From: Chiloscyllium plagiosum
Taxonomy: Eukaryota
Length of the DNA: 64,000 nt
Assembly: GCF_004010195.1 (NCBI RefSeq)
Contig: NC_057759.1
Span: forward strand, 3,661,044 to 3,725,043
Reading direction: 5' to 3'
The translations under genes were made by a program, and so were the position numbers. Positions 1,085 through 64,000 of the stretch are shown here, piece after piece. The notes under the pieces are model-generated. The model saw only the letters and a program-made list of their open reading frames with translations. It did not search any database and was not told the origin of the DNA. Each line of letters starts with the position of its first letter. Within the stretch, counting starts at the first letter, position 1.

Positions 1085-2960
1085 CCTCTCACCCTCAGAA
1101 CGTGCAGCCCTCCACTCCCTCCGTTCCAACCCCAACCTCACTATCAAACCAGCAGACAAGGGAGGCGCGGTAGTAGTTTGGCGCACCAACCATTACACCG
1201 CTGAGGCTAAACGCCAGCTCGCAGACACCTCCTCTGACTGCCCCCTTGACCATGACCCCACCTCCCACCACCAAACCATCATCTCCCAAACCATCCATAA
1301 CCTCATCATCTCAGGGGATCTCCCATCCACCGCCTCCAGCCTCTTAGTCCCACAACCCCGCATCGCCAGTTTCTACCTCCTGCCCAAAATCCACAAACCT
1401 GACTGCCACGGCCGACCCATTGTCTCAGCCTGCTCCTGCCCCACCGAACTCATCTCTGCATACTCCAACGCAGTCCTGTCCCCCTTAATCCAAGAACTCC
1501 ACACCTACATTCGGGATACCACCCACACCCTCCACCTCCTCCATGATTTCCGATTCCCCGGTCCACGACACCTTACCTTCACCATGGACATCTAGCCCCT
1601 GTACACCTCCATCCCCCATCAGGAAGGACTCAAAGCCCTCCGCTTCTTCCTTTCCCGCCGTACCAACCAGTACCCTTCCACTGACACCCTCCTTCGACTG
1701 ACTGAACTGGTCCTCACCCTGAACAACTTCTCTTTCCAATCCTCCCACTTCCTCCAAACCAAAGGAGTAGCCATGGACCCCAGCTATGCCTGCCTCTTCG
1801 TAACCCTCCTTCGACTGACTGAACTGGCCCTCACTCTGAACAACTTCTCTTTCCAATCCTCCCACTTCCTCCAAACCAAAGGAGTAGCCATGGACCCCAG
1901 CTATGCCTGCCTCTTCGTAACCCTCCTTCGACTGACTGAACTGGCCCTCACTCTGAACAACTTCTCTTTCCAATCCTCCCACTTCCTCCAAACCAAAGGA
2001 GTAGCCATGGGCACCCACATGGGCCCCAGCTATGCCTGCCTCTTCGTAACCCTCCTTCGACTGACTGAACTGGCCCTCACCCTGAACAACTTCTCTTTCC
2101 AATCCTCCCACTTCCTCCAAACCAAAGGAGTAGCCATGGGCACCCACATGGGCCCCAGCTATGCCTGCCTCTTCGTAACCCTCCTTCGACTGACTGAACT
2201 GGCCCTCACCCTGAACAACTTCTCTTTCCAATCCTCCCACTTCCTCCAAACCAAAGGAGTAGCCATGGGCACCCACATGGGCCCCAGCTATGCCTGCCTC
2301 TTCGTAACCCTCCTTCGACTGACTGAACTGGCCCTCACCCTGAACAACTTCTCTTTCCAATCCTCCCACTTCCTCCAAACCAAAGGAGTAGCCATGGGCA
2401 CCCACATGGGCCCCAGCTATGCCTGCCTCTTCGTAACCCTCCTTCGACTGACTGAACTGGCCCTCACCCTGAACAACTTCTCTTTCCAATCCTCCCACTT
2501 CCTCCAAACCAAAGGAGTAGCCATGGGCACCCACATGGGCCCCAGCTATGCCTGCCTCTTCGTAACCCTCCTTCGACTGACTGAACTGGCCCTCACCCTG
2601 AACAACTTCTCTTTCCAATCCTCCCACTTCCTCCAAACCAAAGGAGTAGCCATGGGCACCCACATGGGCCCCAGCTATGCCTGCCTCTTCGTAACCCTCC
2701 TTCGACTGACTGAACTGGCCCTCACCCTGAACAACTTCTCTTTCCAATCCTCCCACTTCCTCCAAACCAAAGGAGGACCTCCTTCCACCTATGGCATTTC
2801 CAACACCCCTCCCCCAAGTCCCTCCTCCCTACCTTTTATCTTAGCCTGCTGGACACACTTTCCTCATTCCTGAAGAAGGGCTCATCCCCGAAACGTCGAT
2901 TCTCCTGCTCCTTGGATGCTGCCTGACCTGCTGCACTTTTCCAGCAACACATTTTCAGCT
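1085..2960 (+). mobile_element. Penelope-like element, internally deleted: RT N-half, tandem array, then 3' terminal segment
   Basis: ORF 1080-1595 has IKPADKGGAVVVW and FYLLPKIHKP..GRPIVS motifs typical of PLE RT; TAG at 1593-1595; 3' end cctgaagaagggctcatccccgaaacgtcg...ccagcaacacattttcagct matches the copy at ~12040-12140. Confidence 0.85.
1686..2774 (+). repeat. Tandem array of a PLE RT segment: 2 x 117 bp + 6 x 129 bp + 1 partial copy
   Basis: Unit starts (accctccttcgactg) at 1686,1803,1920,2049,2178,2307,2436,2565,2694; near-identical; long unit encodes TLLRLTELALTLNNFSFQSSHFLQTKGVAMGTHMGPSYACLFV. Confidence 0.95.
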
Positions 2961-16000: not shown

Positions 16001-19000
16001 AGATCAGCCATTTACCAATTGAATAGTGAATAACGTCAAGGGGCTGAATGGCCTACTTCTGCCTTCCTGATTCCTAAATAATGGTTTGGGCGCTGGGAGA
16101 GAGAGATGGACAGGTGGAGACGCTAAAATAATACAAGAAGCTGTGGACGCTGGAGATCTGAACCAAGAACATATAATGCTGGGGAAACGCAGCAGGTCCG
16201 GCAGCATCTGTGGACAGAGCATGAAAAGTTAACGTTCTCAGTCCAGCAACCCTTCTTCAGAACGGAGCAGCTGAAGACAATGACCAGAGGGAAATAAGGG
16301 GAAAGCAGCAAAGGAATTGTTGATAGTTGTTGACAGGCAATATTAAACCCATCTGCAATACCTATATGGCTACTTTCAGCACTGCAAACCCTTTATTAAT
16401 TCCTCCTTATCTCTATTATCCAACCTCTCTTCTTCGCTGGTTTCCTACTAACCAGCCCTTTGGTTGCATTCACTCTTATCTCTCTCTCTCTGGGCACTGT
16501 CTCCATCTATTTCTCACACTCTCCATCCCTCCATACTATCTTTATCTAGACTCTTCTAGTTCTGAAGAAGGGTCTCTGGACTTGAAACGTTAACACTTTC
16601 TCTCTCTCGTTACAGCTGCTGCCAGACCTGCTGAGTTTTTCAAGGGTAACCCTAATTTATCCAATATTAATTCTATTAGCATTATTTAAAATGATATCAA
16701 TGGTCTCTGTCTCTCATTCCCTTTGGAAAATTCCTTTTCAACCATTCTCAGGATTTTGTTATTTTACTGTCCTCTACGATAAAGACAGAGCGGAGAGGTC
16801 CGCCCATTTTGTCTGTCGCTAATTTCATGCTCATGCTTTTCCACAGATTCTCACACGAGGGGCCAATGACTAAAAGTTAGGGCCATACAATCCAGGGGAG
16901 GTTCTGGGAAGCATTTTATTATTGCTCATGGAACGTGAGTGCCGCTGGCTGGTGCAACATTTGTTGTCCAACCATAATTAGCCAGAGAGAAGCTCAGAGT
17001 CAATCACATCACCATGGGTCTGGAGTCAGACGGAAACCATACAATTAAGAACTGTAGATCTCCTTCCCTGAAGGACAGCCGTGAACCAAATTGTTTTTAT
17101 TCTGACAATCAGCATTGGTTTCATGATCATCATTAAATATTTAATTCCAGTCGATCATTGAATTCAATTTCCATCTGCCGTGGCAGGATTTGTACCCAGT
17201 TCCCATGAACATTACCAGGGTCTCGAGCTTAATTGACTGGTGATAGTACATATCACAAAAAGTACGGGAGACATATGGAATTAACTTCTACAAACCACAA
17301 ACTACTTTGATTCAAACCATTCATAAGTTATTTGATTTAAAACTGAGAGAGATACCTTTTGTGTTAAGCAGATGTATTAAAGGAGCTAGGGGGCCAAAGG
17401 TAGGGCTGTGGAGCTATCAGTCAAAATTTGATTGAATGGTGGAACAGGTTCAAGAGGCTGAATGGACTACTCCTAATTCTTAGAGTGCTATGGACTTGAA
17501 ACGTTAATTCTGTATCTCTCTCGCTCACCCCACAGATACTGCCAGACCTGCTGAGTTTCTTCAGTTATTTCTGCTTCAGTCAATTTTTCTAACGTCTACT
17601 TGTATTGGATTCACATAATTTAGGACATAATTAGTCTTTTATTTTTGTTCTGTACATTTATTCTAAATCTGCATGCTTTCACTTATTCTGGAACCTTTCT
17701 GATATCTAATAGTTCCCCAATTTTCTGGCGTGCTTTAGTCTGCACGCCGTTGGACCCTGCTTCTTTCAAAGGGACGGAGACTCTGTTTATTGAAATGAAA
17801 ACATTCACAAACGCTTCTTTCGCCAGAAATGTATACTCGGTGACGTTCTCTCTCTCTCTTTCTCTATCTATCTATCTCGTACTTCAGCCAGGCGGGATTG
17901 GCGGCAGAGTGTGCGCGGGGGGTGGTGCGGTGATAAATTGATTTACCAGTTGAGCTTTAGCAGGCAACATGACAGAAGCAGACTGCAACGGTGAAGTGTA
18001 GTTTGGTGGAGGGTGTTTGGGACAACATTTGTTATGTTTTAATGTCCATATAAATGCGTGTCTCTTTCCTGATGACTGAGGCAGATTCACTTTGATTCAA
18101 ACCATTCATATTCAAGGCAGCGTAAGTCACTCCCTCATATTTGTCTTGTGCACATCAGAATACTCGCCCTGTATTCAGTAACATGGAAATTGCTGTTTGT
18201 AAAGTATACGCTGATATCTTTTGCCTTTAACACTCTATAAAGGTTTTTTTTTGTGTGTCCACCTATCTCAACCTCTTACTTCTTGTCAATCCCTTTCTCA
18301 CCTAGTTCTTTTCACTTTTTTTTTGTTTGGTCTCTTCATTTGAATTGGAATATAGGGGATATGGTGAGTAAATTTGCAGTTTGGTGATATCAATGAAGAA
18401 GGTTATCTCAGAGTCTCACGGGACGTTTATCAGCTCGGCCAATGGGCCAAGGGGTGGCAGATGGAGTTTAATTTAGATAAGTGTCAAGTGTTGCATTTTG
18501 GTAAAAAGAATCTGGGCAAATCTTAGAAAGTTCATTGCAGGGCCCTGGGAAGCGTTGTCGAACAAATGGACCTTAGTGTGCAGGTGCATAGTTCCTTGAA
18601 AGTGGCATTACATGCTTGCCTTCCTTGCTCAGAGCATGTAGTATTGGAGTTGGGATATCATACTGCAGCTGGACAGTACATCGATTAGGCTACTTTTAGA
18701 ATTTGGAATATAATGCTGATTTCTCTCCTGTAGGAAGGACGTCGTTAAACTAGAAAGAGTACAGAAAAATGTTGCAAACTTATTTCTGGAACTGGAAGGG
18801 TTTTTGATTATATGGAGATGATAAATGAGCTGGGACACCTGTTTCCATAAAGTGTCAGAGGCTGAAGGATGACCAGGCAGAGGTTTATAAAATCATGAGG
18901 GGCATAGATAAGGTAAACAGATAAGATCTTTCTCCCAGATTTCAGGAGTCTAAAACTAATGGGCACAGTTTTAATGGGAGAGTGGAAAAAATTGGAAGGG

Positions 19001-27732: not shown

Positions 27733-30479
27733 ATCATCACTCAGTCCCCGATGCTCAAGGGAAAACTGTCCCAGCCTATCCAGCTTCTTATTTTTACTCA
27801 AATCGTCCAATCTGAGTTAAATCCCTGTGATTTTGTTTTTAAAGTAATACCATGCTTCCTATATCACAGGAACCAGAACTGTACACATTACTCGAAACGT
27901 GGTTACATGTCGACAATGACTACTGCACAACCTTCATTTATCTTCTTGGTCTCCTCTTGAAAACACACAAGTTTGTGAGACACAATTTCACAATTTCCTA
28001 CACACAAAGGCATACTGCATATTCCTCATCAGTCCTTGGATCCAAATACATGTAAATTCCAATTCTCAGAACTCCCTGAAATAACTTATACACTACATGA
28101 TTTCAGACACTCCCAGGCTTCTCCTTTCCTAAATATTGACACATTACACTTTAGTAACACCTTTGAAAATGTTTCACATGATAGACTGGTGAGCAAAATA
28201 AATGTGAGGTGATGCTCTTTGAAAGAAGGAATAATAGAAGGGAGTTACTCAATGAATGGCAGGACATTAAGACGCTTAGAGAAACAGCAGGATCTTGGGG
28301 TACTTGCCCACAGAGCCCTGAAGGTGGCAGGACAGATTAATGGAGTGTAAAGAAGGACTACCGGACACTTGCCTTTACCAGTCAAGGCATCAGTTCAGTT
28401 CAATGTGAATAACTTACAGCAATTTCCACCGAAGGGAATAAAACCAAAGACAATTGCTTAGGAGACTGCCCCTCACATGCCCCAAACACTTGCACAATGT
28501 GGACGGGAAGTTCTGCAATTCAGTTCAACGGTATTGCTTCTGTAATTGTGGTCTTGTCACACTGCAGCCAATGAAACTGACTGAGGAGGGGAAGGTCCAA
28601 CTAGCAATCCTTGGAGCAGTCCTTCTGAAAGCTGCTTTTGTCAAAAGAGTTCTCTGCCATTTTGCGCATTACAAAAAAACCCAAGATAACCTCAGAGGCT
28701 TGAGACACCTGCGAGACTGGCATGATTTAATATTCTTTTAATATCACAGCACTCAATATGACATTCACATTGTCTGGGTGTCAATGTCAATGTCATTTCT
28801 TTTGCTTCTTTAGCAGATGTGAGTTTGAAAAGAAGAAATTCACATTATTCCATTGGCCGCCCAGTACCCCCATTGGGCATGGTTTATGTCTATTATTGTT
28901 TAGAGCAGATGGCTACGGCTGTCTTTAAAGCACATGTAACAAAGGTCTTTATTGCATGGTTGTGTTCAGAGAACAAATAGAGGAAAACGGAGTCCCAAAA
29001 CATCAATGAGCCAATGATATTTTCTGAACTGACATGTTATACAGTTTTACCAATTCACAACAAGCATAAAGAAAAGCAGCAGATGCAGTGAACTTGGGAC
29101 CTCAAACCTTCTCTACCTAATAATTATGATGATTTTTGTTCTGATTGTTCATTACAAAGAACGTTTCTGCCATGCAATAGCAATTCGTACTGTTACAATG
29201 AAGTCATCAGGAATGTTAATGGAATGTTAATCCTTGCTTCAAGGTGATTGGAGTATTAGAGTAGAGAAGTCTTCCTGTAACTGTACAAAGTGTTGGAGAG
29301 ACCTCATCTGGAGCACTGCGAGCAGTTTCGCTCCTCGTATTTAAGGGAAAAAGCGATTTCATAGGAGTGTGCTCATCTAATCCCCACATTGTGGAAACAG
29401 GCCCTTCGGCCCAACAAGTCTACACTAACCCTCCAACGAGTAACCCACCTGGACACATTTCTCCTACCTTATATTTATCCCAAACTAATGCTGGTTGATT
29501 TTTGATGCTGGTTGATTTATTTTATTTATATCATAGAGACATTTGTTTTTTTGTTAAGCAGAGGTATTAAAGAGTTAGGGACCAAAGGTAGCTCTACGGA
29601 GTTGGGTAACAGATTACTGGCAGAACTGGCTGGAGGGCCTGAATGGCCTACTCCTGTTCCTTTGATATTCTAACATCTGCTATTTGTTTTTATTTTAAAT
29701 ATATTTTAGGAATTTATCAGTCTATTATTTTTCTCTATATTTCTTGTGTATCTAAATGCTTTCACTTGTTTGGAAGCTTTTTGTCATACGTCATAGTCCC
29801 CGAATTCTCTGGTGTACATAAATCTTGGCAGCACTGGACATCGTTGGCATCTACTTTTCTAATTGAGATGGAAACCTTTCCAAACATCCCTTGAACGAGA
29901 AATGAAAATCTTTCTGACCTCACTCTCTCTCATACTCCAGCCTGATCTATCTTCTGAGTGCAGAATGAGGCCTCCAGGGGAAATCTTGCTGTATTTCAAC
30001 TTCTGGCAATGCTCCAAAGTGACTTTGAGGATTCAGGGAACCAGGGGTGGATAATCGTTGTATCAGTGGATGGAAAGTGGGATGTTGGTTGAATTAATTC
30101 ACAGGATGAGTTTCAGGAAGCAACATGACAGAAGCAGACGTCAACCGTGGAGGCGAGAGTACAAAGGTTGTTATGTTTTCACGTCCATGTACACTCTTCC
30201 CTCACGACTGAGGCTGATTCATTTTTACTCATATGATCCATGTTCAAGACTGCATAAGTAACTCCTTCACATTTCTTGTCATTCACATGGGAATACTCGC
30301 CCTGCATTCAGCAAACATGCAAAGTGGTGTTTGTAAAGTATGCACTGATATCTTGCACTTCTGTTACTCACGAAAGTTTGTTTGCCTATCTAAACAAACC
30401 TATTGCTTCCTGTCAATCCCCTTCACACCAACCCTACACACTATTGTTTATTTTTGTCTTTTCAGTCTCTCAATTTGCA

Positions 30480-31362: not shown

Positions 31363-32149
31363 CTCGCTTTTCAATGTGCTTCCTATGTTTATCTCTACCT
31401 CAATATTTCATTGCCATAACCCTCATTCTCACGACTATTTGCCCAATTATCCCTCGATTCTGTGTTGACTTTCTGCATCCCTCACTATCTCACTCTCTCT
31501 GTTAATCAATCTATACTTGTCCTAAACTTCCTCAAACTCCAAGTATGACTTTTTTATTCCAGGACTCTCTCTCGAAATCTAATCAGACTTTGCGTAGCAA
31601 AAAAATAAAAGTGATTAAAGTTTGGTTAATAATTGTGTGCTTATCATGGGATTGTAATAGATCAAATTGGCGTTGCCACCTGTGAAAAAGGAAGCATAGA
31701 AGTTGAGTTTTTCTCTGCCTGTTTTAGGAGTGACACTCAGTAGTTCATGTTGTCAACTGTTTGTGTGTGCTTATTCCTGATGCCCATTGAAATATAGGCC
31801 CAATTTTTTTTTACTGTAGCCCCAATCTTGCTTTGTGTACAGAAAGAGAGAGAGAGAGAGAGACATCTGGTGTTTCAAACAGCTGGTTATCACACCTCAG
31901 TGGATGGAAACATTGAGATGGATAGTTCACAGGCAGCGTTGAAATTGAACCCATATTATTGGAGGCACCCACCAGTCATTACAACGAATCTCCCTTGCAT
32001 AGCCTTCAATCTATTAAATGGTGACAATGTTTATTTATTGGATATATAATCTCTCAACTAGGATGATTCCTGGGATGGCGTTATTGTCTTATGTGTTAAA
32101 AATATTGCGACTCTACTCACTGGAGTTTAGAAGAATGGAGGCAATCTCA

Positions 32150-32437: not shown

Positions 32438-33751
32438 CTGCTGGGAGAGCTTTGTATGTTGGGAGAATGTTTCCCCCTCATTGAAGCGTCACGGACCAGA
32501 AGGTAAAGTCTCAGAATCAAGGGGTGTCAATGGATGACTGAGATGAGCAAGATTGTCTTCTATCGGATGTTTTGGTGTCTTTGGAACTTCTTACCACAGA
32601 GAAATGCATGAGTGGGCAGAGTCCTTGTGTATATTTAAGGCTGAAACAGATACATTATTGATTAATCAGTGAATCAAGTGGTTGTGAGAGATGTCGGATC
32701 AGCCATGGTTCGAATACCTGACTACTGTTGCCCGTTCGTATGTTCCTATGATCCCATTGAATATTCCCAATCTCACGGTTCCAGATAAATTCTGAACATG
32801 TTCTGTAAGTTGCATCTTTGCCCTGTCTGTGCAAACCAGAGTCCAGATGGAAACTGAAAAGCAACATAACTTGGATAGTTTTTCTTCATCCTTCACACAG
32901 AGGAAAACAAACCACACACTACTCATTCCAGCGCACTGGGTCTTCTCTATGATATGATTAAATTCTCCAATGCCCTGACACGGTATTGGAAAATCAGGCT
33001 GTAGGAATGGATTACAGCTTTATCATTGACATTTCTGATTTATTTTGAGGACAGAATAGAACAAGAGTGAATGCAAACACAAAGGTATCACCTCAAATGC
33101 TTGTTTCAACGTGATGTGTTTAACTTCAACATGATGCACACAGTGGCCCAAATGAAATGGCTTGTGTTTTATCTGCCAGTCATTGAGCTAGCTTTTCTGA
33201 AGGAGTGTCAGTGGACTAGAAACATGAATGCTGTCCATGTCTCTTCACAGATGCTATCAGACTTACTGTGTTTCTCCTGCATTGTCTAGTGTTATTTTCT
33301 TTCGCTGTTTGACCGCAACAGTATCCACGACCCCAGCATTCAGATTATTTCAATGTTTGTTTCTGATGCTGTGACGCTGTCTTAACAGAGAGTGAATAAT
33401 CATAGAGTGAACAGGAATGAAGTTTAGAATTTCTCTACTAAAACGATTTACCCATTTATCACCTTAATAATCACAAAGAAAGATGTCACTTTTTATAGCG
33501 ATCATTACAACTAGTCATTAGCACCAGTGATATACTTACAAATGCCATCATTGTTTTTGCTTTGTCTATTTTGAACTGTTGAGGATGGAGTCCTGGAACA
33601 TTGGCTCAAATGTACTCCAGATGCAAAGGGAGTTGATGGCACAAACATCATCAAGGATTAAATACGAGATCTAAAGATGTATTAATGCACGTCTATCTGT
33701 TGCATAAAGTCAAGTATCAGAAAAAAAACAAGAGTCATTTAAAATTCTCAC

Positions 33752-33779
33752 CTCTGAACATTTCGATATTTATTTCGGC
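33752..33779 (-). pseudogene. Candidate cytoplasmic exon (G)RNKYRNVQ(R)
   Basis: ctatatccctcag acceptor, gtgaga donor, phase-1 start matches the TM exon end. Confidence 0.55.
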
Positions 33780-37857: not shown

Positions 37858-37950
37858 CTTTCTTGAAAATTATGAGGCATACCACAAGTAAAATAATGAT
37901 CACGGCAGCAGATCCCAGTCCGATTTACAGATATAATCCTGGCTTGGCAC
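37858..37950 (-). pseudogene. Transmembrane exon with premature TAA
   Basis: ttttcattgcatag|...|gtaatt; 93 nt, phase 1-1; GAKPGLYL*IGLGSAAVIIILLVVCLIIFKK; stop at 37925-37927. Confidence 0.8.
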
Positions 37951-40887: not shown

Positions 40888-41217
40888 CTTTTCATGGGTG
40901 TTCCACCTCTCTTTTCTCTGTGACTGAAACAGATTGGCTGGACGGGGTAAGGATGGCCCGCCCATTAACGTCTGTTTGATATCGACAACTGTAGTTTCCT
41001 GTAGAAGAATGTTCATGGACATTGATGGTAAAGGCGGAGTTATCTTCGAGACCAGTCACATGACGATGCTGTATAAAACCTTGCTGCCGGCTGTTATACA
41101 AGTATAATATTCCTCCTCTGGACCGAATCTCACCTTTGCAGGAAATCATGACATTGTCCCTGTTTGAATTCGCAGCGGAATTTGCCAGCACGTTGATAAT
41201 TGGTTTGGAGAGTTGAT
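40888..41217 (-). pseudogene. Ig domain 2 exon (C2-type)
   Basis: DQLSKPIINV...ISCKG...LYLY...SAFTI...GNYSCRY...SQSVSVTEK; 50 aa between the Cys; 330 nt, phase 1-1, to a gtaact donor; TGA at 40892-40894. Confidence 0.85.
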
Positions 41218-44548: not shown

Positions 44549-44845
44549 CTCTGACGTGTATCAGAATGATGTCGGTCAATCCTGATGTTCTGCATGTTCG
44601 ATTCACCAACATGAATAAATATTCATACGTGTAACTTGATTCACCTCTCTTTAAGGGTTTTAATTGTGAAGATGTTTCACATTGTCCTTCAGAAAGATCT
44701 ATGACACTGCAACCGGGATCGTGACTGTAACAAGAGTGTATCCTTGTGACTGGACATTGACAGGTACACTTCATTGATGCTGTCTCTTCATCTAAAAATA
44801 CCTCATACGTTGGATTCAGAGACAAAACCGGCTTTGGTAAATCAT
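44549..44845 (-). pseudogene. Ig domain 1 exon (Cys-rich), F-strand Cys lost
   Basis: cctcag|ATGATTTACCAAAGCCG...GTCAGAG|gtatgg; DLPKPVLSLNP...KCTCQCP...SSYTYEY...IHVR; ~57% aa identity (manual alignment) to 59827-60117. Confidence 0.85.
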
Positions 44846-46341: not shown

Positions 46342-46377
46342 ATATCTCCTGTATTTCGACCAGCACTTGGAAATGAA
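46342..46377 (-). pseudogene. 36-nt leader mini-exon with acceptor AG mutated to AA
   Basis: ttccattAA|TTCATTTCCAAGTGCTGGTCGAAATACAGGAGATAT|gtgagt; homologue of 56965-57000. Confidence 0.8.
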
Positions 46378-54020: not shown

Positions 54021-55335
54021 ATATCAATATGGTTGAGATCTAATAAAATATGTGCAGTTTATAATTAACCTGCGTTAGAATAGGATGAATCTTCAACTAT
54101 CTTGAAACCTCTTTTGCAATTGTGGTTCTACGTTACGTATTCTGCATTACTGGCCATTATCACCGAACTAATAATAATAACAATAATAAGAGTAACAAAT
54201 TTGAATAGACACAGCATTGAGAGCAAGACATGAGGATGCAATTCTCCAACAAGCTGTCTGCCACATGCTCAAGGGCAGATCAGGATGGGTAATAATTGCT
54301 GGCCATGAGTAAATAAAAATAAACTTTATGTCTCCGGAACAAACTTACGAAATGCAAAATCATCTTTTCTTCTCCTGAGGAAACACATTGTTATAATATC
54401 ACAGCATAGAAACAAATCCTTCAGTCGAACCAGTGCATGCCACACATGATACTAAACTAAACTTTCCACCTGCTCCTGGCCCGCACCCTTCAAAATCAAT
54501 CCTATTCATGTAGTTATCCAAATGTATTTCAAATGTTGTAATTTTGCTCACAAGCATAAATTTCTCATCCTGCATGCGAATCAACATCTGTGTAAAACAA
54601 AAACATGCTGTTTTAAAATATCTCTCCTCTCTCCTTAAAAATATGCCCCCTTGTCTTGAAATTGCCTAATTTAGGGAAAAGACAACTCCCATTAACCTGA
54701 CTTGTACCCTTGTGATTTTACAACATCATTTCACAACCTCCTACGTGCCAGTGAAAAAAAAAACCCAGCCTTTCCTTATAACTTAAACATTCCATACCCA
54801 GCAACATCCTGATTAAATCTCTTCTGAGACCTCTTCAACTTGATAACATCCTTCCTATAACTGGTCCTCAAAGTTATACCAGCACATGATGTAGCAACTG
54901 ATTTCATAAATTACAGTAGAATTCAAATAGACATCATATATATACATTTTCTTTGACAGTCAATGCTTGCAATCTTCAGATAATGATGCACTTTGGCTTC
55001 TAACCACTGGGTAATGATAATATTGTCATAGTACCACTCTCTCCTATTGAGAGAGAGATGACTTGGGGAGGGGGGAGCTTATCTTGCGGGTCAGCATGTC
55101 TAAAAAGAGGGATGAGATGGTAGTAATGACAGTTGGATGTGAGAACTGAACCCGTGCTCTTAGTGTGACTGCATCACAAGCCAGCTAGCCAGCCAACTGA
55201 GCTAGCCCCCTGTGTAATCTGGCTGAATGGCCTGAAGGCTCCTAGTTATGCAGACTGCTTCTGCGCTGACTGCTCAACACCATGTTTTTTTTTTCATGAT
55301 GAGCAATAGCGTGCGCAATAGAAATAATTTTGTGA

Positions 55336-55369
55336 AACCACATGACAATTTATCATCTCTGTTCCTGTT
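55336..55369 (+). promoter_or_regulatory. Candidate haematopoietic proximal promoter: RUNX, GATA and ETS motifs
   Basis: AACCACA 55336-55342, TTATCA 55350-55355, TTCCTGTT 55362-55369, ~110-145 bp upstream of ATG 55481. Confidence 0.45.
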
Positions 55370-55480
55370 TCAAAATGCTCAATGCAGACTGTTGGCTTCA
55401 ACTAATAGGATACTTAAGCAAGAAAGAAGGCAAACTCAGATCTCAACGTCCAAAGTATCAGGTGGAAATTTCGTCGGAAA

Positions 55481-55511
55481 ATGTTCGCATTTTCAATCTT
55501 TCTTACAACTG
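55481..55511 (+). CDS. Ig-like receptor exon 1, leader part 1 (MFAFSIFLTT-V)
   Basis: aaaATG context, hydrophobic 10 codons, G|gtaagt phase-1 donor. Confidence 0.75.
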
Positions 55512-56964
55512 GTAAGTAGCCTGCCTTCGAAGATGATACAATAGCAGTATTGAGTTAACTTCTGATCGCCTCATTAAAGGAAGGATGTGGAAGCTTTAGA
55601 CTGGGTACAGAGGAGATTTAACAGGATGCTGCCTGGACTGGAGGGTATATCTTATGAAGAAAGTTTGAGGGCGCTCAGGATTTCTCATTGGAACGAAGAA
55701 GGAAGAGAGGTGACTTGATAGGGGTGTACAAGATGATGACAGGCACAGACACAGTGGATAGCCAGAGATATTTTCCCAGGGTGAAAGGCTATCATGGGGG
55801 GAAGGGGTACATAATTTTACGGTGTTTGGACGAAGGTTTACTGGAGAAGTCTGAGGTAGGTACTTTACACAGAATGGTGTGAGTGTGTAATACACTGCCA
55901 ACAGTTCTATGAAGGCAGATACATTAGGGTTGTTTAAGACATTCTTAGATAGGCACGTGGATTGATAGTAAAATGATGGGTATGTAGGTTAGTTTGGGCT
56001 TAGTGGCAGATAAAAGGTCCGCACAACATGGAGGGCCGAAGGGCCTGTACTGTGCAGTACTATTTTATGTTCTATGTTTAAATATCCTCAAAAAGGTCCA
56101 TCAGATTTCTGAAGCATGTTCAGTATTTAAAGCAGCCAAACTGGTTCTGTCCAATTTTGCCATTTTGCCAAGCTGACAAAGAACTGCATTGACACATTTT
56201 CTTCGCTATTTAAAAGGCTATCGAGTCAGCATGACCATTTTCAATATCTATAGAATTATGAAAGTTGGTCAACAATGCAGCAATTATGTTTCTGGCACTC
56301 TTATAATCCACTTACTTTCAACTCTAGAAATTCTGATATCTTTCATAAAACATACTAAGTCCAAGTTCCCATTAGATATTGTCCATGAAAGGAACTGGCT
56401 ATTGTTGTGGAACCTGAAATGTTTATTTATAATTTTGCGCATCTCCTATTGACCATTTTTTGTGTACTTTCAAAATTTATTCCAGTTCTTTGGTTGTGCC
56501 GTATTTTCCATTGTTCAGCTTTAAGATGAATGATGTCACACTCAAACTTAAAATAAAACTCTGTAGTATAATGGTCACAATTTCCAACAACTCTATGCTG
56601 TTATGGTCACTATTTCCCGAGAAAAAGAACAGGAAATAACATCACTACAGTAAATGATGTGACCACAGTAAATGACATCACCAACCCAAAGAAACCCAAC
56701 ATCTAAATGGAAAGCAGGAATTATCAACAGTGCTTTCCCGGAGACATTCTGAATAGGTTACTAGTAGAATGACGAAACGTCTGGAAATGAACCTTCCAGC
56801 TTCAGCGAGCAAACCTACATCCACATCTTCCAAAAACAATACAATCCCTTTTCGTGGTCCGACCTCCAAATGTGTCATTACAGAAATTTGCATCTCTGTC
56901 TGTCTCCAGATTTTTAAATAGTAACATATTAATATTAATCAATTCCTTTATCACTTCCCAATAG

Positions 56965-57000
56965 TCCACTTCCACATTTTGGTCGAAATGCAGGAGATAT
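56965..57000 (+). CDS. Ig-like receptor exon 2, 36-nt leader mini-exon (V)HFHILVEMQEI(Y)
   Basis: cttcccaatag|...|gtgagt, phase 1-1, conserved in the inverted paralogue. Confidence 0.85.
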
Positions 57001-58019
57001 GTGAGTATGAGAATTTAAAATGCATTTAATTCTTTTACATATACTTAACTGTCTAAATGCTTTTCCACTTGATTATCAGATTGATTGATGAGAAACAGTT
57101 TAAACAAATGTACGGCTAAAATTTGTATCCAGCTTTATCGACATCATTTTGAAAGTTAATGTTATCGTGCGTCTTTTTATTGTCCGTCTATCATGGAGTG
57201 TCACCGATTGGTTGATTATATTTCCTGGCAGTGGACAGAAGAAATAGTGTGAGAATTATAATGAATAATATGAACCTCGTGGCACGATCAGGTTCTGTTG
57301 TTTGAAACTTTATAATCATATTATGACCATAAGAAGATTAAACAAAATTTTATAAACATTAGTCGTACAGTCCCAGAGATATATGACACAGCCATCAGAT
57401 CGATTCTAGTCAAAAGCAGCCACCTCACTATTCTCTAAACCCGTTTTCCCAGAACTTGGTCAAAATCCTTGGTATCACAAGTGTTCATCTAAATTCTTCT
57501 TCAATGTGGTGAGGGTTTCTGCCTCTCCCACCCTTACAGACAGTGAGTTTCAGATTCCCCACTGATGTGAAAACATGTTTCCTCACATCCCCTCTAATCC
57601 TACTTGCCCTTACCTTCAATCTTTGTCCCTCTCCCGTACTCATTGATCTCTCCGTCAATGAGCAGAAAGTTCTTCCTGTCTACCTTATGCATCCCAATAA
57701 TGATCCTCTCTAAATATCCTCTGCTGCAGCGAAAATAACCCTTGTTTGTCCACTCGCCCTCTCACTGAAACTCTACAGTCCCAAGGTAACATCCCTCTGC
57801 ACCCTCTCCTAGTGCTGTCACATCCGTTCTAGAATGTGGATTCCAGATCTGGGCACATTACCCTCGTTCGATGACCGAACCAACACTTTATACAGTCCCT
57901 GCATCATCTCCCTGCTCTAAAACTCTGTGCTCTAAAGGCAAGTATTCCCGTACACTTTGATTAATTTCAAACAGTAAGTGGAACTATCAGCTAAAACTGA
58001 GTAACTTTAGTCTGAAATC

Positions 58020-59720
58020 CTTATGCAGTCTTGGTTGTGAGTATGTTCGCCGAGATGGGCAATTGATTTGCAGATATTTCATCCTCTGTCACGGTGACAT
58101 CTTCAGTGCTTTGTAGCCTCCTGTGAAGTCGTGCTGCACTGTGTCTTCTGGAATTTGGCTCCGTTTCTGCTGCTTCCAGTTCTTCGTTGTAGTGACCGGT
58201 ATATTGGGTACAGGTCAAGGTGCTTGTTGATGGAGTCCGTGTCCATGCTTCGAAGAATTCACTGGCTGACCTCTGTTTAGCTTGTTCTGTGATCGTTGTC
58301 TTGGCCCATTCAAATTTGTTTTCCCTGTCTTCTGTGTGTATAGCTACTCGGGTTAGCTGGTCGTGGTGTTTAGCGGCCAGTTGGTGTTCATGGTTGCAGA
58401 TTGCTAGTTGTCTGTCTGTACATCATCTACATTATTACGTGCAGTCTTTGCATGGTATTTTGTAAATTATTTTAGTCTTGCACATGCTGGGTAAGGGTGT
58501 TTTGTCCTTGTGAGTTGTCTGAGCATGGCTGTCGATTTATGGGCTGACATGAAACCTCATGGTCGGAGAAGTCTGATGTCAACTCGGAGACATTTTTTAA
58601 AATCAGGTAGCGTGGCTAATTTGTTAGGACGTGGCATGTCCTTGTCACGTTGGTTGTTAGCCATCTGCGAATGTAGTTGTAGTGATATCCGTTCTTGGTG
58701 AAGACTCTGTGCACGTGTTTTTTATTCTCTTTGTAGGCCGGGAGTGCTGCAGAGTGTTGAATCCCTAATACAGATTGTCTCGTGGATGTTCGGGTAGTTG
58801 CTGTTGTAATTCAAGATCTGGTCAGGGTGTACTCTTTTGTGGTGCATTCACTGTTCTGTGTTGTTTGTACCATCGCATCCAGGAATAGGAATCGATTGTT
58901 TCTTTCCTCCTCCTGTAAATGTGATTCCTGTGAATATGGTATTAATGATCCGGTGTATATTCTCAATTTATGTTCTCTTACTGATGACAAATGTGGCATC
59001 GCTGTATCTGATTCAGAGTTTGGGTTAGTCTTGTGCTAGTGCTGCTTGTTCCAATCTTTGCATCACTGCTTCTGCTATGAGCCCAGGGATGGGTGAGCCC
59101 ATAGGTGTCCCATTGATCTGTTCATATATTTGAATGCGAAGTGTGTCTAGTATTTTGAGTACACAGTCCTTGTTGGTAGGTTTCCACATCATGTTTTCTG
59201 TTCTGCCTGTTCAGGAGATTGGAAATAGTCTCTCTAGCCAGAGTTTTGTCAAGTGACATAAACAGTGCTGTTACATCAAATGAGACCATTGCTTCGTGCA
59301 AAGGCAGCCTGAAACACGATAAAGGGCAAACAAGAATAAGACTAACAATCCGGATGAACGAACACCAACTAACCACTAAATGCCACGACCAGCTGTCCTG
59401 GTAGCCGTACACACAAACGACAAGGACCACAAATTTGACTGGGACAATACAACGATCAAAGCACACGCTAAACAGAGGACAGTGAGAGATTTGATAGAAA
59501 CAGGCACGGACTCTATCAATAATCACATTGACTTGGACTCAATATAACGGCCACTACAATGAACAACCATAACTGGCAATCAGAAGCAGCAGAAACAGAA
59601 CCAGATAAACAGTACATAATGTTTCACAGGAGTTTCCAATGCACTAAAGATGCCACATGGAGAGGGCACAAAACATCTGCAAATCAATTCCCAGCTGAGA
59701 ACCCAGGCTACAAATCGATG
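58020..59720 (-). mobile_element. PLE fragment (RT + GIY-YIG) with an inverted + strand piece at ~59290-59720
   Basis: MVSFDVTALF, INGTPMGSPI, FLFLDAMV, RMNEHQL; specific to this paralogue's intron. Confidence 0.8.
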
Positions 59721-59826
59721 TACAAACATTTTCAATAAAGTTCACATGAAGTCAGCTTATTGTAACAGTTCAGACATTTTGATTAAACATATTCTACAGA
59801 TGAAATGTTTTAACTGAATTCCGCAG

Positions 59827-60117
59827 ATGATTTCCCCAAGCCAATAGTATCCCTGAATCCATCATATGGAGTGTTTTTGGAAGGAGAGGCAACATCAGTG
59901 AATTGTAGCTGCCAATGTCCAGTCACAAGGGTACAATTTTTTTACAATTCCATATGTCATCACAAAGATCTTCATGAAGGACAATGTGAAACATCTTTAC
60001 CGTTAACACCCTTAAACAGAGGCAAAGCAAGTTACATGTGTGAATGTTTATTTCTGTTGGAGAATGGAACATGGAGAAGATCAGGATTGACTGATCCTGT
60101 TCAGATACATGTCGGAG
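59827..60117 (+). CDS. Ig-like receptor exon 3, Ig domain 1 (7 Cys)
   Basis: ccgcag|ATGATTTCCCCAAGCCA...GTCGGAG|gtatgt; 291 nt open, phase 1-1; DFPKPIVSLNP...VNCSCQCP...ASYMCEC...SGLTDPVQIHV. Confidence 0.88.
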
Positions 60118-60149
60118 GTATGTCATGAAACCTACGTTTACTTTGTATT

Positions 60150-61270
60150 TGATGCTTGATTTAATTTTGTCACATGCACTGAGATAAAGTGAAAAGTGTA
60201 GCTTCACAAGCTTTACACGCAGATCGTGCCTTACAATGTGCATCAGAGTAACTGAGTAGAGTGCAGAATACAGGGATACAGCTGCAGAGAAGGTACAGAG
60301 AGAGACCAGAATTAATATTTGAGAGGTCTGTTCAAAAGTCTGGTAACAATGGGGAAGAAGTTGTTCTTGAATCTGTGCAATCATGTATTCCAACCCTTGT
60401 ATCGTTTACCTGACGAAAAAGAGTGGCATACAATAAAATTACGGTGGTGGGGATTTCTTGATTATTTTGGTTGCTGTCCTGAGTATCGAAGAGATCAAAA
60501 GATGGAAGGTTGGTTTATACGTCGTTCACAACTCTCTGTGATTTCTTGAGCACTTGCTATACTGTGCTGCAGTCAAATATGGTGCAATTATAAAAAAAGT
60601 ATTAAGGGCAGCTTGTGGACATTCTGCCCTTTGTTAGCCTCCTGAGGAAGTAGAGAACCTGTTATGCATCCTTGACCATCGCGTTGACATGCGAGGTGCG
60701 TGACAGATTGTTTGCAATCATCACTGCCAGGAACTTGTCACCCTCGACCATCTCTACTTCAGCACTATTGATGCATCTGAGGGCATGCCCTCCTCTCTGA
60801 TTCTTGAAGTCAATGCTGAAATCCTTGATTTTGCTGATTTTGCTGATGTTGTTGTCTTTACAAAATGCTGCTAAGCACACAGTTTCTTTTCTGTATTTCG
60901 TCTCATCATTGTTTCACATCTGACCGATAACGGTGGTTATCGGTCAGATAACCTGTGAATGGATTTGGGTGAGAATTTGGCCCCACAGTCGTGAGTGTGT
61001 TATGAGTATAGATGTGTGCTGAAACCGCAACCATGTGGGGAATCGGTATTGTGGATTATGATAGAGGAAGCATTGCTGCACATTCTGACTAATTGTGGTC
61101 TATGTATCAGGAGTTCGGGATTCAGTTACAGAGGGAGGAGCCGAGACCGAGGTCTCAGAATTTAGAAATGGGTTCGTTTGGAATTATGGTGTTGAACGCG
61201 GAGCTGTAGTCAGACACTGACGTAGGTGTCCTTGCTATCCAGAAGTTCCAGGGATGAGCATAGTGATGTC
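60150..61270 (-). mobile_element. Rex1/Babar-type LINE 3' part, positionally equivalent to 42120-44520
   Basis: Homologous 3' end just downstream of the Ig1 donor; NSAEVEMVEGDKFLAVMI.NNLS. Confidence 0.7.
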
Positions 61271-61309
61271 TGCTGGGGACAGTTAAAACACTGACATTGA
61301 TCTAACAAT

Positions 61310-63640
61310 GTGTAAAAGTGCCCAGGTACATCCGGTACACAAAATGCAAGACAAATCCAACCGACCAATTACCGCCCAATTAGTCTACTCTCCGTCATCA
61401 GTATAGTGATGGAAGGGGCCATTAAATTGTGGGCGGTACGGCGGTACAGTGGCACAGTGGCTAGCACTGCTGCCTCACAGCGCCGGAGACCCGGGTTCAA
61501 TTCCTGCCTCAGGCGACTGACTGTGTGGAGTTTGCACGTTCTCCCCGTGTATGCATGGGTTTCCTCCGGGTGCTCCGGTTTCCTCCCACATTCCAAAAAT
61601 GTGCAGGTAAGGTGAATTGGCCATGCTAAATTGCCCGTAGTGTTAGGTAAGGGGTAAATGTAGGGGTATGGGAGGGTTGCGCTTCGGCGGGTCGGTGTGG
61701 GCCTGTTTCCACACTGTAATGTAATCTAAAATGTGCTATCAAGCAGGTCCTGCTCAGCCACAATCTGCTGAGTGCCGCCCCGTTTTGGTTTGGCCAGGAT
61801 CCATCAGATCCAGATCTCAATACAAATCTCAATCTCAGTTCAAACGTGGAAAAAAGAGTTGAATTCCATGGTTGAGGTTAGCTTCATACCTCGCACAAAA
61901 GAAGATGGTTATGGTTATGGAGGGTCAGTCATCTCAGCTTCGGGACATCACTGCAGGAGTCCCTCAGGGTCGCGTCTTCCACGCAACAATCTTCAGCTGC
62001 TTCATCAACGGCCTTTGATATTCGGCAATGATTGCACAGAGTTTAGCGTCATTTGTGACTCCTCAGGTACTGAAGCAGTTCATGTTTAAACGCAACAAGT
62101 TCTGGACAATATCAGGCTTGGGCCAACAAGTGGCAAGGAACATTCGCACCACACAAATGCCAGACAATGGCCAAAGGAAACTGTGAGAAGTAACGGGAAT
62201 ACAGACTACTGGGATAATGGTAAGACTCTTGGTAGTATCAGTGAGCAAAGAGATCTCGGTGTCCATGTGCATAGATCCTTGAGAATTGACACCCTGGTTG
62301 ATAGTTTTGTTGAGAAGGCGTATGGTTTGTGGGTAGAGGGATTTAGTTTCGGAGCCATGAGGTCATGTTGCAGCTGGACAAAATTCTGGTGCGGCCGCGC
62401 TTGAAGTCATGTGTACATGTTGGTCGCTGCATTATAGGAAAGTTGAGGAGGCATTTGAACGAGTGCAAAGGAGATTTTGCAGGATGTTGCCTGGCATGGT
62501 GGGGGGGCCTTATGAGCAAAGGGTGAGGGACATCAGGCTGCATTTGTTCGAGAGACGAAAGTTGAGAGGTGACTTATTCGAGACATACAAGATAATCACA
62601 TGATTGGATCGGGTGGATAGTGAGAGCTTTTACCTCGGGCGATGCTGGCTAGCACGAGGGGACACAGCTTTAAATTGAAGGATGGGTGACTTCAGAGGTA
62701 GATTCCTTGCTCAGAAAGTAGTAGGGGCGTAGAATGCCCTGCTTGCAAATGTAGTAGACTCACCAACTTTACTGGCATTTAAATAGTTATTATATAAATA
62801 TATGGATAATAATGTTATAGTGTAGGTTAGATGGGCTTCAGATCGGTTTCACATGTCAATGCAACGTCGATGGCCGAGGGGCCTGTGCTAGACTGTATTG
62901 TTCTATGTTCCATCGCAAGTAAGAGATGCTCTAACCACCTCCGTTTGACGTACAATGGTATTACCTTCACGGAATCTCCTACTGTCAACATGGTTGAGAT
63001 TACCATTGACAGGAAGGTCAGCTGGACTCACCACGTAAAACACAGTGGCTCCAACAGCCGTTCGGGGATGAGGGATACTACGGTGTGTAACTCACCTCCT
63101 GAAACCCTAAAATCGATACACAAAGCACAAGTCAGGAGTGTGATGGAAACGACCCCACATGCGTGAATTGGGGCAGCCGCAACAACATTATAACACTTGA
63201 CATCATGCAGGACAAAGTGACCCGCTTGATTGGCACATCTACAAGCTTTCAATCTCAGTACCACCAGTGTTCAGTAACAGCAGCATGTACTATTTACAAG
63301 ATGCACTGCAGAAATTCTCCAAATATCCTTAGTACCTTCCAAACCCATGACCACTTCCAAGTAGAAGGACGAGGGCAGGAGATACTTGGAAACATCACTA
63401 CCAGCAAGTTCCCCTCCAAGCCACTCACCACCCTGACTTGGAAATATACCACCTTTCCTTTCGCAGTCATTGGACAAAATCCTGGATTTCCCTCTCGACC
63501 GGCATTGTGGGTAAACCGACAGCAAATGGACTGCAGCGATTCAAGAAAGCAGTTCCCACCAGTTTCTTAAGGGCAAATAGGGACGGGCTATCAATGCTGG
63601 CCAGCTAACGACGCCAAAGTCCCATAAATGAAAAACAAAA
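61310..63640 (+). mobile_element. L2/CR1-clade LINE interrupted by a V-SINE (~61435-61729) and a CR1 fragment (~62175-62910)
   Basis: NYRPISLLSVIS.VMEG; ESPTVN; KAQVRSVME; LDIMQDKVTRLIG. Confidence 0.75.
61435..61729 (+). mobile_element. HE1-like V-SINE
   Basis: A/B boxes, V-core and tail. Confidence 0.9.
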
Positions 63641-63879
63641 ACTCAATACTAACATTATGTAGTGTACTATTTTATAGGATGATATCAGTTAAGGTTTATT
63701 TGGTTAACATTTACTTTGCAACTTGTTTATGCATTTGATTTAAAAATTTTGCTATGAAGATCTCTCTTTCTGGACTTTGCAATTGTTTTCTTCCACACTT
63801 TCTTCTTTCGAGTGTTTTGATTTTTTAAAAAATACGATTGTTCTTTTTTGTAAAAGTCTACTTTAAAATTATGGAACAG

Positions 63880-64000
63880 ATCAACTCTCCAAACCGAATA
63901 TCAAAGCGTTGTCAGATTCCGATGCCAATTCAAGCAGGGACATTGTATCGATTTCCTGCCAAGGTGATATTCGGCCCAGTGGAGGAATATTCTCCTTTTA
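63880..64000 (+). CDS. Ig-like receptor exon 4, Ig domain 2 (partial, runs off the window)
   Basis: gaacag|ATCAACTCTCCAAACCG; DQLSKPNIKALSDSDANSSRDIVSISCQGDIRPSGGIFSF, homologous to 41217-41100; not in the ORF track. Confidence 0.85.
   Translation, partial: MNSPNRISKRCQIPMPIQAGTLYRFPAKVIFGPVEEYSPF

Follow-up and report, generated by a model that had tools for sequence, protein, structure and literature searches.

The locus

The window analysed here is a stretch of 64,000 nucleotides (nt) of DNA from the shark Chiloscyllium plagiosum (contig NC_057759.1, positions 3,661,044 to 3,725,043), which sits on C50, a chromosome of 8.08 Mb within a genome of 3.56 Gb. At its right end lie the first four exons of a receptor gene, termed gene A in the following, which has been assembled from window DNA together with downstream genome DNA into nine exons with an open frame of 345 residues and an AG/GT border at every junction. 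The four exons in the window, of 31, 36, 291 and 121 nt (the last one running to the window end), had been proposed in an initial annotation and are all found at the proposed positions with ATG and AG..GT borders; all are in phase 1 without a stop, their translation returns the expected peptide, and the leader is indeed split into 31 nt and exactly 36 nt. The suggestion that the gene is intact has been borne out as well, as five further exons downstream complete the receptor, and stops in the second immunoglobulin (Ig) or the transmembrane exon, a possible objection at that time, have been looked for in the genome DNA and are not present. Gene A comprises the following features:

55173..55480, + strand: putative promoter and 5' untranslated region, with ~69% identity over 270-350 nt to DNA upstream of two paralogues
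55481..55511, + strand: leader exon 1, coding part of 31 nt (MFAFSIFLTT), same length in two paralogues
56965..57000, + strand: leader exon 2, 36 nt; 36 nt in close paralogues and 30 nt in the activating paralogue P0193
59827..60117, + strand: exon of Ig domain 1 (D1), 291 nt, with the canonical Cys49/Cys94 and the conserved extra Cys51, 53, 76 and 96
63880..64000, + strand: start of the exon of Ig domain 2 (D2), 330 nt in all, ending past the window at C50 3725252
C50 3726779-3726874, + strand, past the window: transmembrane exon, 96 nt
C50 3733924-3733951, 3734124-3734176 and 3735092-3735126, + strand, past the window: tail exons of 28, 53 and 35 nt
C50 3736497-3736634, + strand, past the window: last exon, with the immunoreceptor tyrosine-based inhibitory motif (ITIM)

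Three database protein models of gene A (P0001-P0003), all of them predictions, use the same junctions and vary in whether they skip the D1 exon, the transmembrane exon or one of the tail exons. The nine-exon layout recurs (31/36/297/333/96/28/53/35/138 nt) in another intact paralogue, also on C50, and because models and paralogue share junctions and layout, the exon chain is not a chance product. A congener has a full-length orthologue with 86% identity, three other genera have open relatives with 61-67% identity, and between the two intact paralogues the ratio of nonsynonymous to synonymous substitution rates (dN/dS) is 0.57 over 345 codons. An alternative activating exon belonging to gene A itself has been sought, and none is present within 68 kb downstream of its stop.

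Predicted protein and signalling

The product of gene A is a type I receptor consisting of a leader, D1 (residues 24-119) and D2 (120-220), both of the C2 type, a short stalk, an uncharged helix and a tail of ~85 residues, with four N-glycosylation sequons. The tail holds the motifs GIYDNA, LIYCNS, GEYSKV, VTYAAL and CMYMDV with the tyrosines Y289, Y296, Y303, Y316 and Y340, among which Y316 belongs to a canonical ITIM (VTYAAL), and Y289 and Y296 stand in YxN sequences that may be Grb2-type sites. The extra cysteines 51, 53, 76 and 96 of D1, kept in 24/30, 22/30, 23/30 and 27/30 aligned rows, probably form two additional disulfides; Cys61 is missing from gene A, so that Cys66 is apparently unpaired, and the congeneric orthologue has both. 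An AlphaFold model based on a 30-sequence alignment has shown two confident Ig domains, with a mean predicted local distance difference test score (pLDDT) of 84.5, values >90 across most of both domains, and a predicted template modelling score (pTM) of 0.64. Pfam yields no match for D1 of gene A and only weak Ig matches for D2 of the paralogue.

We consider it probable, at roughly 0.7, that gene A is an inhibitory leukocyte receptor which works like LILRB, PIR-B or CHIR-B and whose Ig domains are related to those of the leukocyte receptor complex (LRC). Ligand binding by the Ig domains would then lead to phosphorylation of Y316 and Y340, which are 24 residues apart, by Src-family kinases, and the phosphorylated tyrosines would dock SHP-1/SHP-2 and thereby damp activating signals. 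Short-tailed sister receptors with Arg or His in the helix would in turn signal via an FcR-gamma-type adaptor with an immunoreceptor tyrosine-based activation motif, and the gene family may evolve by birth and death. Architecture and motifs are seen directly, and the proposed signalling rests on established LRC biology (PMC6557307; this and the other published sources are cited from their accessible parts). Regarding the ligand, an unrelated self or pathogen surface protein comes close to an even bet; the Fc part of immunoglobulin and major histocompatibility complex (MHC) class I are both unlikely, to the same degree, and collagen is more doubtful still. Two paralogue gene identifiers do not occur in four supplementary files of a bamboo-shark single-cell paper, an absence that carries no weight because such marker lists are selective. 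A search with the D1 stretch has listed no RNA entry for it; three entries that may be RNA contain 0.64-0.77 of its words, close to the 0.74 that the exon makes up of the query, and likewise carry no weight.

A paired family in sharks

Gene A, as the ITIM form, and its short-tailed paralogues with an Arg/His helix constitute a paired system. C50 carries at least ~10 copies of the family, including two intact inhibitory genes (gene A and one at 0.86-0.88 Mb), and at least six activating-type helix exons, three in broken genes and three for which no Ig exons have been found upstream; all these counts are lower bounds. An apparently intact activating paralogue, P0193, with a leader of 31 + 30 nt, is located on an unplaced 25-kb contig. 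The activating-type helices read AIVR, TAIR, AIIR, TLVH, TLVR, NLVH and ALVQ and align in register with the NxxR helix of tetrapod LRC receptors, with Arg/His followed by a conserved C-terminal acidic residue; they obtain the top non-tetrapod scores, 7-14 bits versus at most 2.7 for the six inhibitory helices checked. The three orphan helices (3.94, 4.155 and 5.48 Mb) have been considered as parts of neighbouring FCRL-like genes, an idea rejected for now, as no same-strand Ig exon of either family has been found within 21-55 kb upstream, stretches that contain assembly gaps. A zebra shark model (P0013) combines helix exons of the inhibitory and the activating type in one gene, possibly through alternative splicing between signalling modes or through mis-prediction.

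A search of 1.84 billion proteins with the family profile has returned 688 matches at E<=0.001, and names have been examined for 30 of the best 150, plus some others. Among these named matches, two-Ig members with the CxCxC motif of D1, inhibitory as well as activating, come from carpet sharks, catsharks, basking shark, horn shark, sawshark and sevengill shark. In several shark orders, full-length inhibitory relatives retain the ITIM. Longer relatives come from rays, elephant shark, sardine, frog and turtles, and amniote LRC-type proteins are represented by koala LILRA3, a gecko IGSF1-like protein and a tortoise protein with an NxxR helix. Six long multi-Ig relatives (P0016, P0017, P0022, P0048, P0050 and P0061; sawfish, numbfish, sardine, elephant shark, turtles, frog) score on the family profiles as high as amniote LRC proteins and may represent a wider unnamed group.

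Relationship of the Ig domains

When compared with sequences in the PDB, the family profile has matched PIR-B first (E 2.7e-35) and FCRL5 second, followed by LILR, KIR and OSCAR, and LRC receptors or CHIR make up 50 of the best 60 matches (out of 343 at E<=1), with CHIR-AB1 at E 2e-8. The two-domain receptors LILRA2 and OSCAR have reached 56 bits, versus 42, 39 and 37 for the Fc-gamma receptors FcgRII, FcgRIII and FcgRI, and a narrower family profile also puts PIR-B first. The fold comparisons agree with this order: with the gene A model, ranks 1-10 of Foldseek are all LRC and the first FcgR appears at rank 19, and in VIA-align the best 50 of 995 aligned chains are all LRC domains, led by OSCAR (Z 14.7, root-mean-square deviation (rmsd) 4.3 over 174 residues; LILRB2 D2: Z 13.2, rmsd 1.5 over 86). 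In both the profile and the fold rankings LRC stands above the Fc receptor (FcR) subtype, to which the domains of the gene A family therefore do not seem to belong. As a control, domains of the FCRL-like family on the same chromosome match FCRL5, FcgRI (D3) and FCRLA first in the PDB, and on the domain profiles of the gene A family these FCRL-like genes score at most 32 bits, below most best domains of amniote LRC-type proteins.

A phylogeny of 76 domains over 102 columns, with one to three domains picked from each of 30 proteins, contains a starred branch (98/95) that parts 10/12 shark FCRL-like and 6/6 CEACAM/CD22-type outgroup domains from the gene A family together with amniote LRC domains. 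In this phylogenetic check, proposed in the initial annotation, D2 groups with amniote LRC at 89/79 and D1 is placed without support; neither of the two forced groupings is rejected by the approximately unbiased (AU) test. Forcing the family together with amniote LRC costs 16 log-likelihood (lnL) units (p 0.18). Tree and AU tests together lean towards a link with LRC rather than with FcR without deciding for it. The last ancestor that the Ig domains of the family share with amniote LRC receptors is most likely younger than the one they share with FCRL domains. The amniote LRC domains form a starred clade without the shark family; judged from its sequence, gene A branches outside this clade and no single human gene is its orthologue.

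Chromosomal context and leader exons

The FCRL-like genes of C50 came to light through a Pfam Ig_2 search, which showed many further Ig exons along the chromosome; these genes have at most six Ig exons plus an uncharged helix and occur at no fewer than 11 places:

C50 ~1.00, 1.49, 2.46, 2.52, 2.89, 3.85-3.87, 4.14, 4.90, 5.51, 6.13, 6.98 and 7.07 Mb: FCRL-like genes (e.g. L108, L114)

Both families alternate along the chromosome, gene A lies within this FCRL gene cluster, and the nearest FCRL-like gene ends ~114 kb away. In human, FCRL and LILR/KIR genes are found on different chromosomes. No examined link between the two shark families is free of assembly gaps (three at 2.85-2.89 Mb, of which two are of 500 N, and one of 972 N at 4.14-4.155 Mb), and their order may therefore partly be a product of scaffolding.

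KIR, LILR and FCAR genes have a second leader exon of 36 nt, a rule for which no passage has been found in the literature searched. For FcR genes, leader exons of 30/21 bp are described (PMC2413239). The initial annotation had used 36 versus 21 nt to assign gene A to the LRC side, and this argument is weak in this shark, because P0193 and three neighbouring FCRL-like genes both use a leader of 31 + 30 nt, which is conserved in the latter and in both cases splices in frame to the first Ig exon. The 31/36-nt leader of gene A deviates from the FcR rule, and so do the shark FCRL-like genes.

Comparison with known receptors

Like LILRB, mouse PIR-B and inhibitory KIR, which are also its best sequence-profile matches, gene A encodes a type I protein with one C2-type Ig domain per phase-1 exon, an uncharged helix and an ITIM tail spread across several small exons. 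Unlike these, it shows only 13-24% identity in structural alignments and carries the CxCxC motif with four extra conserved cysteines in D1, and it stands outside the amniote LRC clade on a chromosome where no LRC framework gene has been found. The two-domain ectodomain is shared with OSCAR, NKp46, GPVI and TARM1, and the activating paralogues have a similar helix; however, gene A is of the inhibitory type, the helices read xxxR/H/Q instead of NxxR, and the top fold match to OSCAR may reflect the poorly determined inter-domain angle of the model (pTM 0.64). As a large paired family on a microchromosome, the shark genes resemble the chicken CHIR on microchromosome 31 (PMC6557307; PMC11835228), and for CHIR-AB, too, His or Arg is accepted as the charged helix residue (PMC10764270), whereas CHIRs are described as a separate cluster and the shark family is interleaved with FCRL-like genes. 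FCRL, Xenopus XFL and teleost LITR likewise combine a split leader with paired signalling, and FCRL-like genes share the chromosome, although the domain type of the gene A family is distinct from theirs.

Alternative explanations

Several observations weigh against an LRC-related inhibitory receptor. FCRL5 takes the second rank in the PDB search (E 1e-28, best stretch 33 bits versus 46 for PIR-B), and the nearest clusters in the ESM Atlas are MILR1, C17orf99 and HIDE1, none of which is labelled LRC. In the tree, whose tetrapod LRC rows were picked via shark profile matches and which has no tetrapod FCRL among its rows, the placement of family D1 gets no support, and the AU test does not reject a tree in which the family is forced together with FCRL-like domains (p-AU 0.068, lnL cost 26). 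Although no LRC element is more conserved than the NxxR helix, it is found in Xenopus FCRL and SLAM too (PMC6557307, PMC2413239, PMC4536121), and the shark helices deviate from the strict motif, as Asn is mostly absent and Asn and Arg are never seen together. The signal peptide of gene A has an atypical end (..LVEMQEIY). Synteny does not support an LRC locus either: CNOT3 lies on C39, two Tweety genes, whichever paralogues they are, lie on C21 and C24, and none of them is on C50. These markers have given a clear answer in one of four cases only, as PRPF31 has no match in the genome search, where no control matched, and RPS9 has only an S4-family match on C9 that is not identifiable as RPS9; the assembly seems to be without several such genes. 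The LRC-like leukocyte receptor of the initial annotation is retained in part, with profile and fold searches, the ITIM tail and the activating-type paralogues in its favour; the 36-nt argument is weak and LRC synteny is not supported. Because the strict NxxR motif and linkage to CNOT3 are lacking and the tree is undecided, gene A is not filed as an LRC member; we call it LRC-related, and membership is unproven.

A different history, in which the family split off from the common ancestor of FcR and LRC as an independent third lineage or came from within the Fc-receptor cluster, and in which it would still be an ITIM paired system but with an ancestral or convergent likeness to LILR/KIR instead of LRC orthology, would be consistent with its position among FCRL-like genes, the leader of 31 plus 30/36 nt common to both families, the lack of any LRC framework gene found on C50, the AU result for the FCRL-like grouping and the exclusion of the family from the starred amniote clade. 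We hold it to be unlikely, since LRC structures come out ahead of FcR structures in every direct comparison of sequence and fold, the FCRL-like neighbours behave in the opposite way, and markers of the FcR cluster have not been found on C50 either (VANGL is on C12, and exons of an RGS-like guanine nucleotide exchange factor are on C35 and two unplaced contigs). It is highly improbable that gene A is merely a decaying or non-immune copy, be it one that is open through recency, is poorly exported through its odd leader, or serves as an adhesion or matrix receptor: the loss of Cys61, the database isoforms without D1 or transmembrane exon and the decay of most neighbouring copies into pseudogenes would fit such a fate, but nine open exons with intact splice sites, the congeneric orthologue and the open relatives in three other genera, a dN/dS well below 1 and an ITIM kept across shark orders speak for a maintained receptor.

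Other copies and features

An example of the decayed copies is gene B, a pseudogene paralogue arranged head-to-head with gene A in the window, which has lost an acceptor, the F-strand cysteines and a donor and has acquired two stops and a 7-nt deletion; its exon 1 has not been found in the window. A third copy is represented there by its last exon, and no other exon of it has been found in the window.

46342..46377, - strand: gene B leader exon 2, acceptor AG lost
44549..44845, - strand: gene B D1 exon, F-strand cysteines lost
40888..41217, - strand: gene B D2 exon, in-frame stop in the stalk
37858..37950, - strand: gene B transmembrane exon, in-frame stop
33540..33779, - strand: gene B tail exons 1 (33752-33779) and 2 (33540-33592)
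31645..31679, - strand: gene B tail exon 3, donor GT lost
30171..30301, - strand: gene B last (ITIM) exon, 7-nt deletion
18032..18168 (approximate ends), - strand: orphan ITIM-bearing last exon of a third, decayed copy

At window positions 1686-2775, ~7 near-identical tandem copies of 129 bp repeat an in-frame reverse-transcriptase fragment within a retroelement, possibly as an assembly artefact or through recent amplification. Elsewhere in the genome, C50:7711230-7717023 on the - strand (L063) holds a multi-Ig relative of the family, which includes a partial duplicate of an Ig exon and is 45-50% identical to a white-shark A1BG-like protein. A lone D2-like exon stands beside a gap on a large chromosome (C12:2816634-2816993, L073), with no other exon found in 20 kb. 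C47 carries CEACAM-like genes, recognised by inspection, at 4.9-7.0 and 8.88-8.94 Mb (L125-L127), as well as a large SRCR-plus-Ig gene (P0180) with Ig domains akin to those of the gene A family.

Prior knowledge and significance

Wang et al. are said to have described a single LRC-like gene and two fcrl genes in elephant shark (Immunogenetics, 2021). The origin time of the LRC family is stated as open (PMC6557307), and an ancestral LRC has been placed on a proto-gnathostome microchromosome (PMC8302630). LRC and FcRL homologues have been reported absent from sharks (PMC4016189), and a 2026 review regards Fc-receptor-like molecules as absent from cartilaginous fish (PMC13337447); genes annotated fcrl3 and fcrl5 appear in bamboo-shark B cells in a single-cell study (PMC11372145). 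The accessible parts of PMC7677710, PMC10751288, PMC11659932 and bioRxiv 2022.04.21.489081 contain nothing on a shark LRC. Automatic names of such receptors are usually misleading (PMC6557307); shark proteins of the gene A family or a wider group around it are labelled LILRB3, LILRA2, OSCAR, TARM1-like, IGSF1-like or A1BG-like, and the close relatives of gene A are labelled uncharacterized. These labels and the bamboo-shark fcrl annotations are already known, and the unnamed paired family and its interleaving with FCRL-like genes appear to be new: no account of either has been found in the literature searched, which did not extend to subscription journals.

One may speculate, with the odds rather against it, that the interleaving is a surviving ancestral FcR-LRC supercluster with a shared leader of 31 + 30/36 nt, which later split into the human complexes at 1q21-23 and 19q13.4, the 21-nt FcR mini-exon being derived. 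If this were true, old physical linkage would account for the occurrence of one activating helix in the LRC, FCRL and SLAM families of Xenopus. An intact receptor with an ITIM and with activating partners, found across shark orders and close to an FCRL-like family, would date both paired-receptor systems to the jawed-vertebrate ancestor, and the family described here gives named candidates for the missing antibody- and MHC-sensing receptors of sharks.

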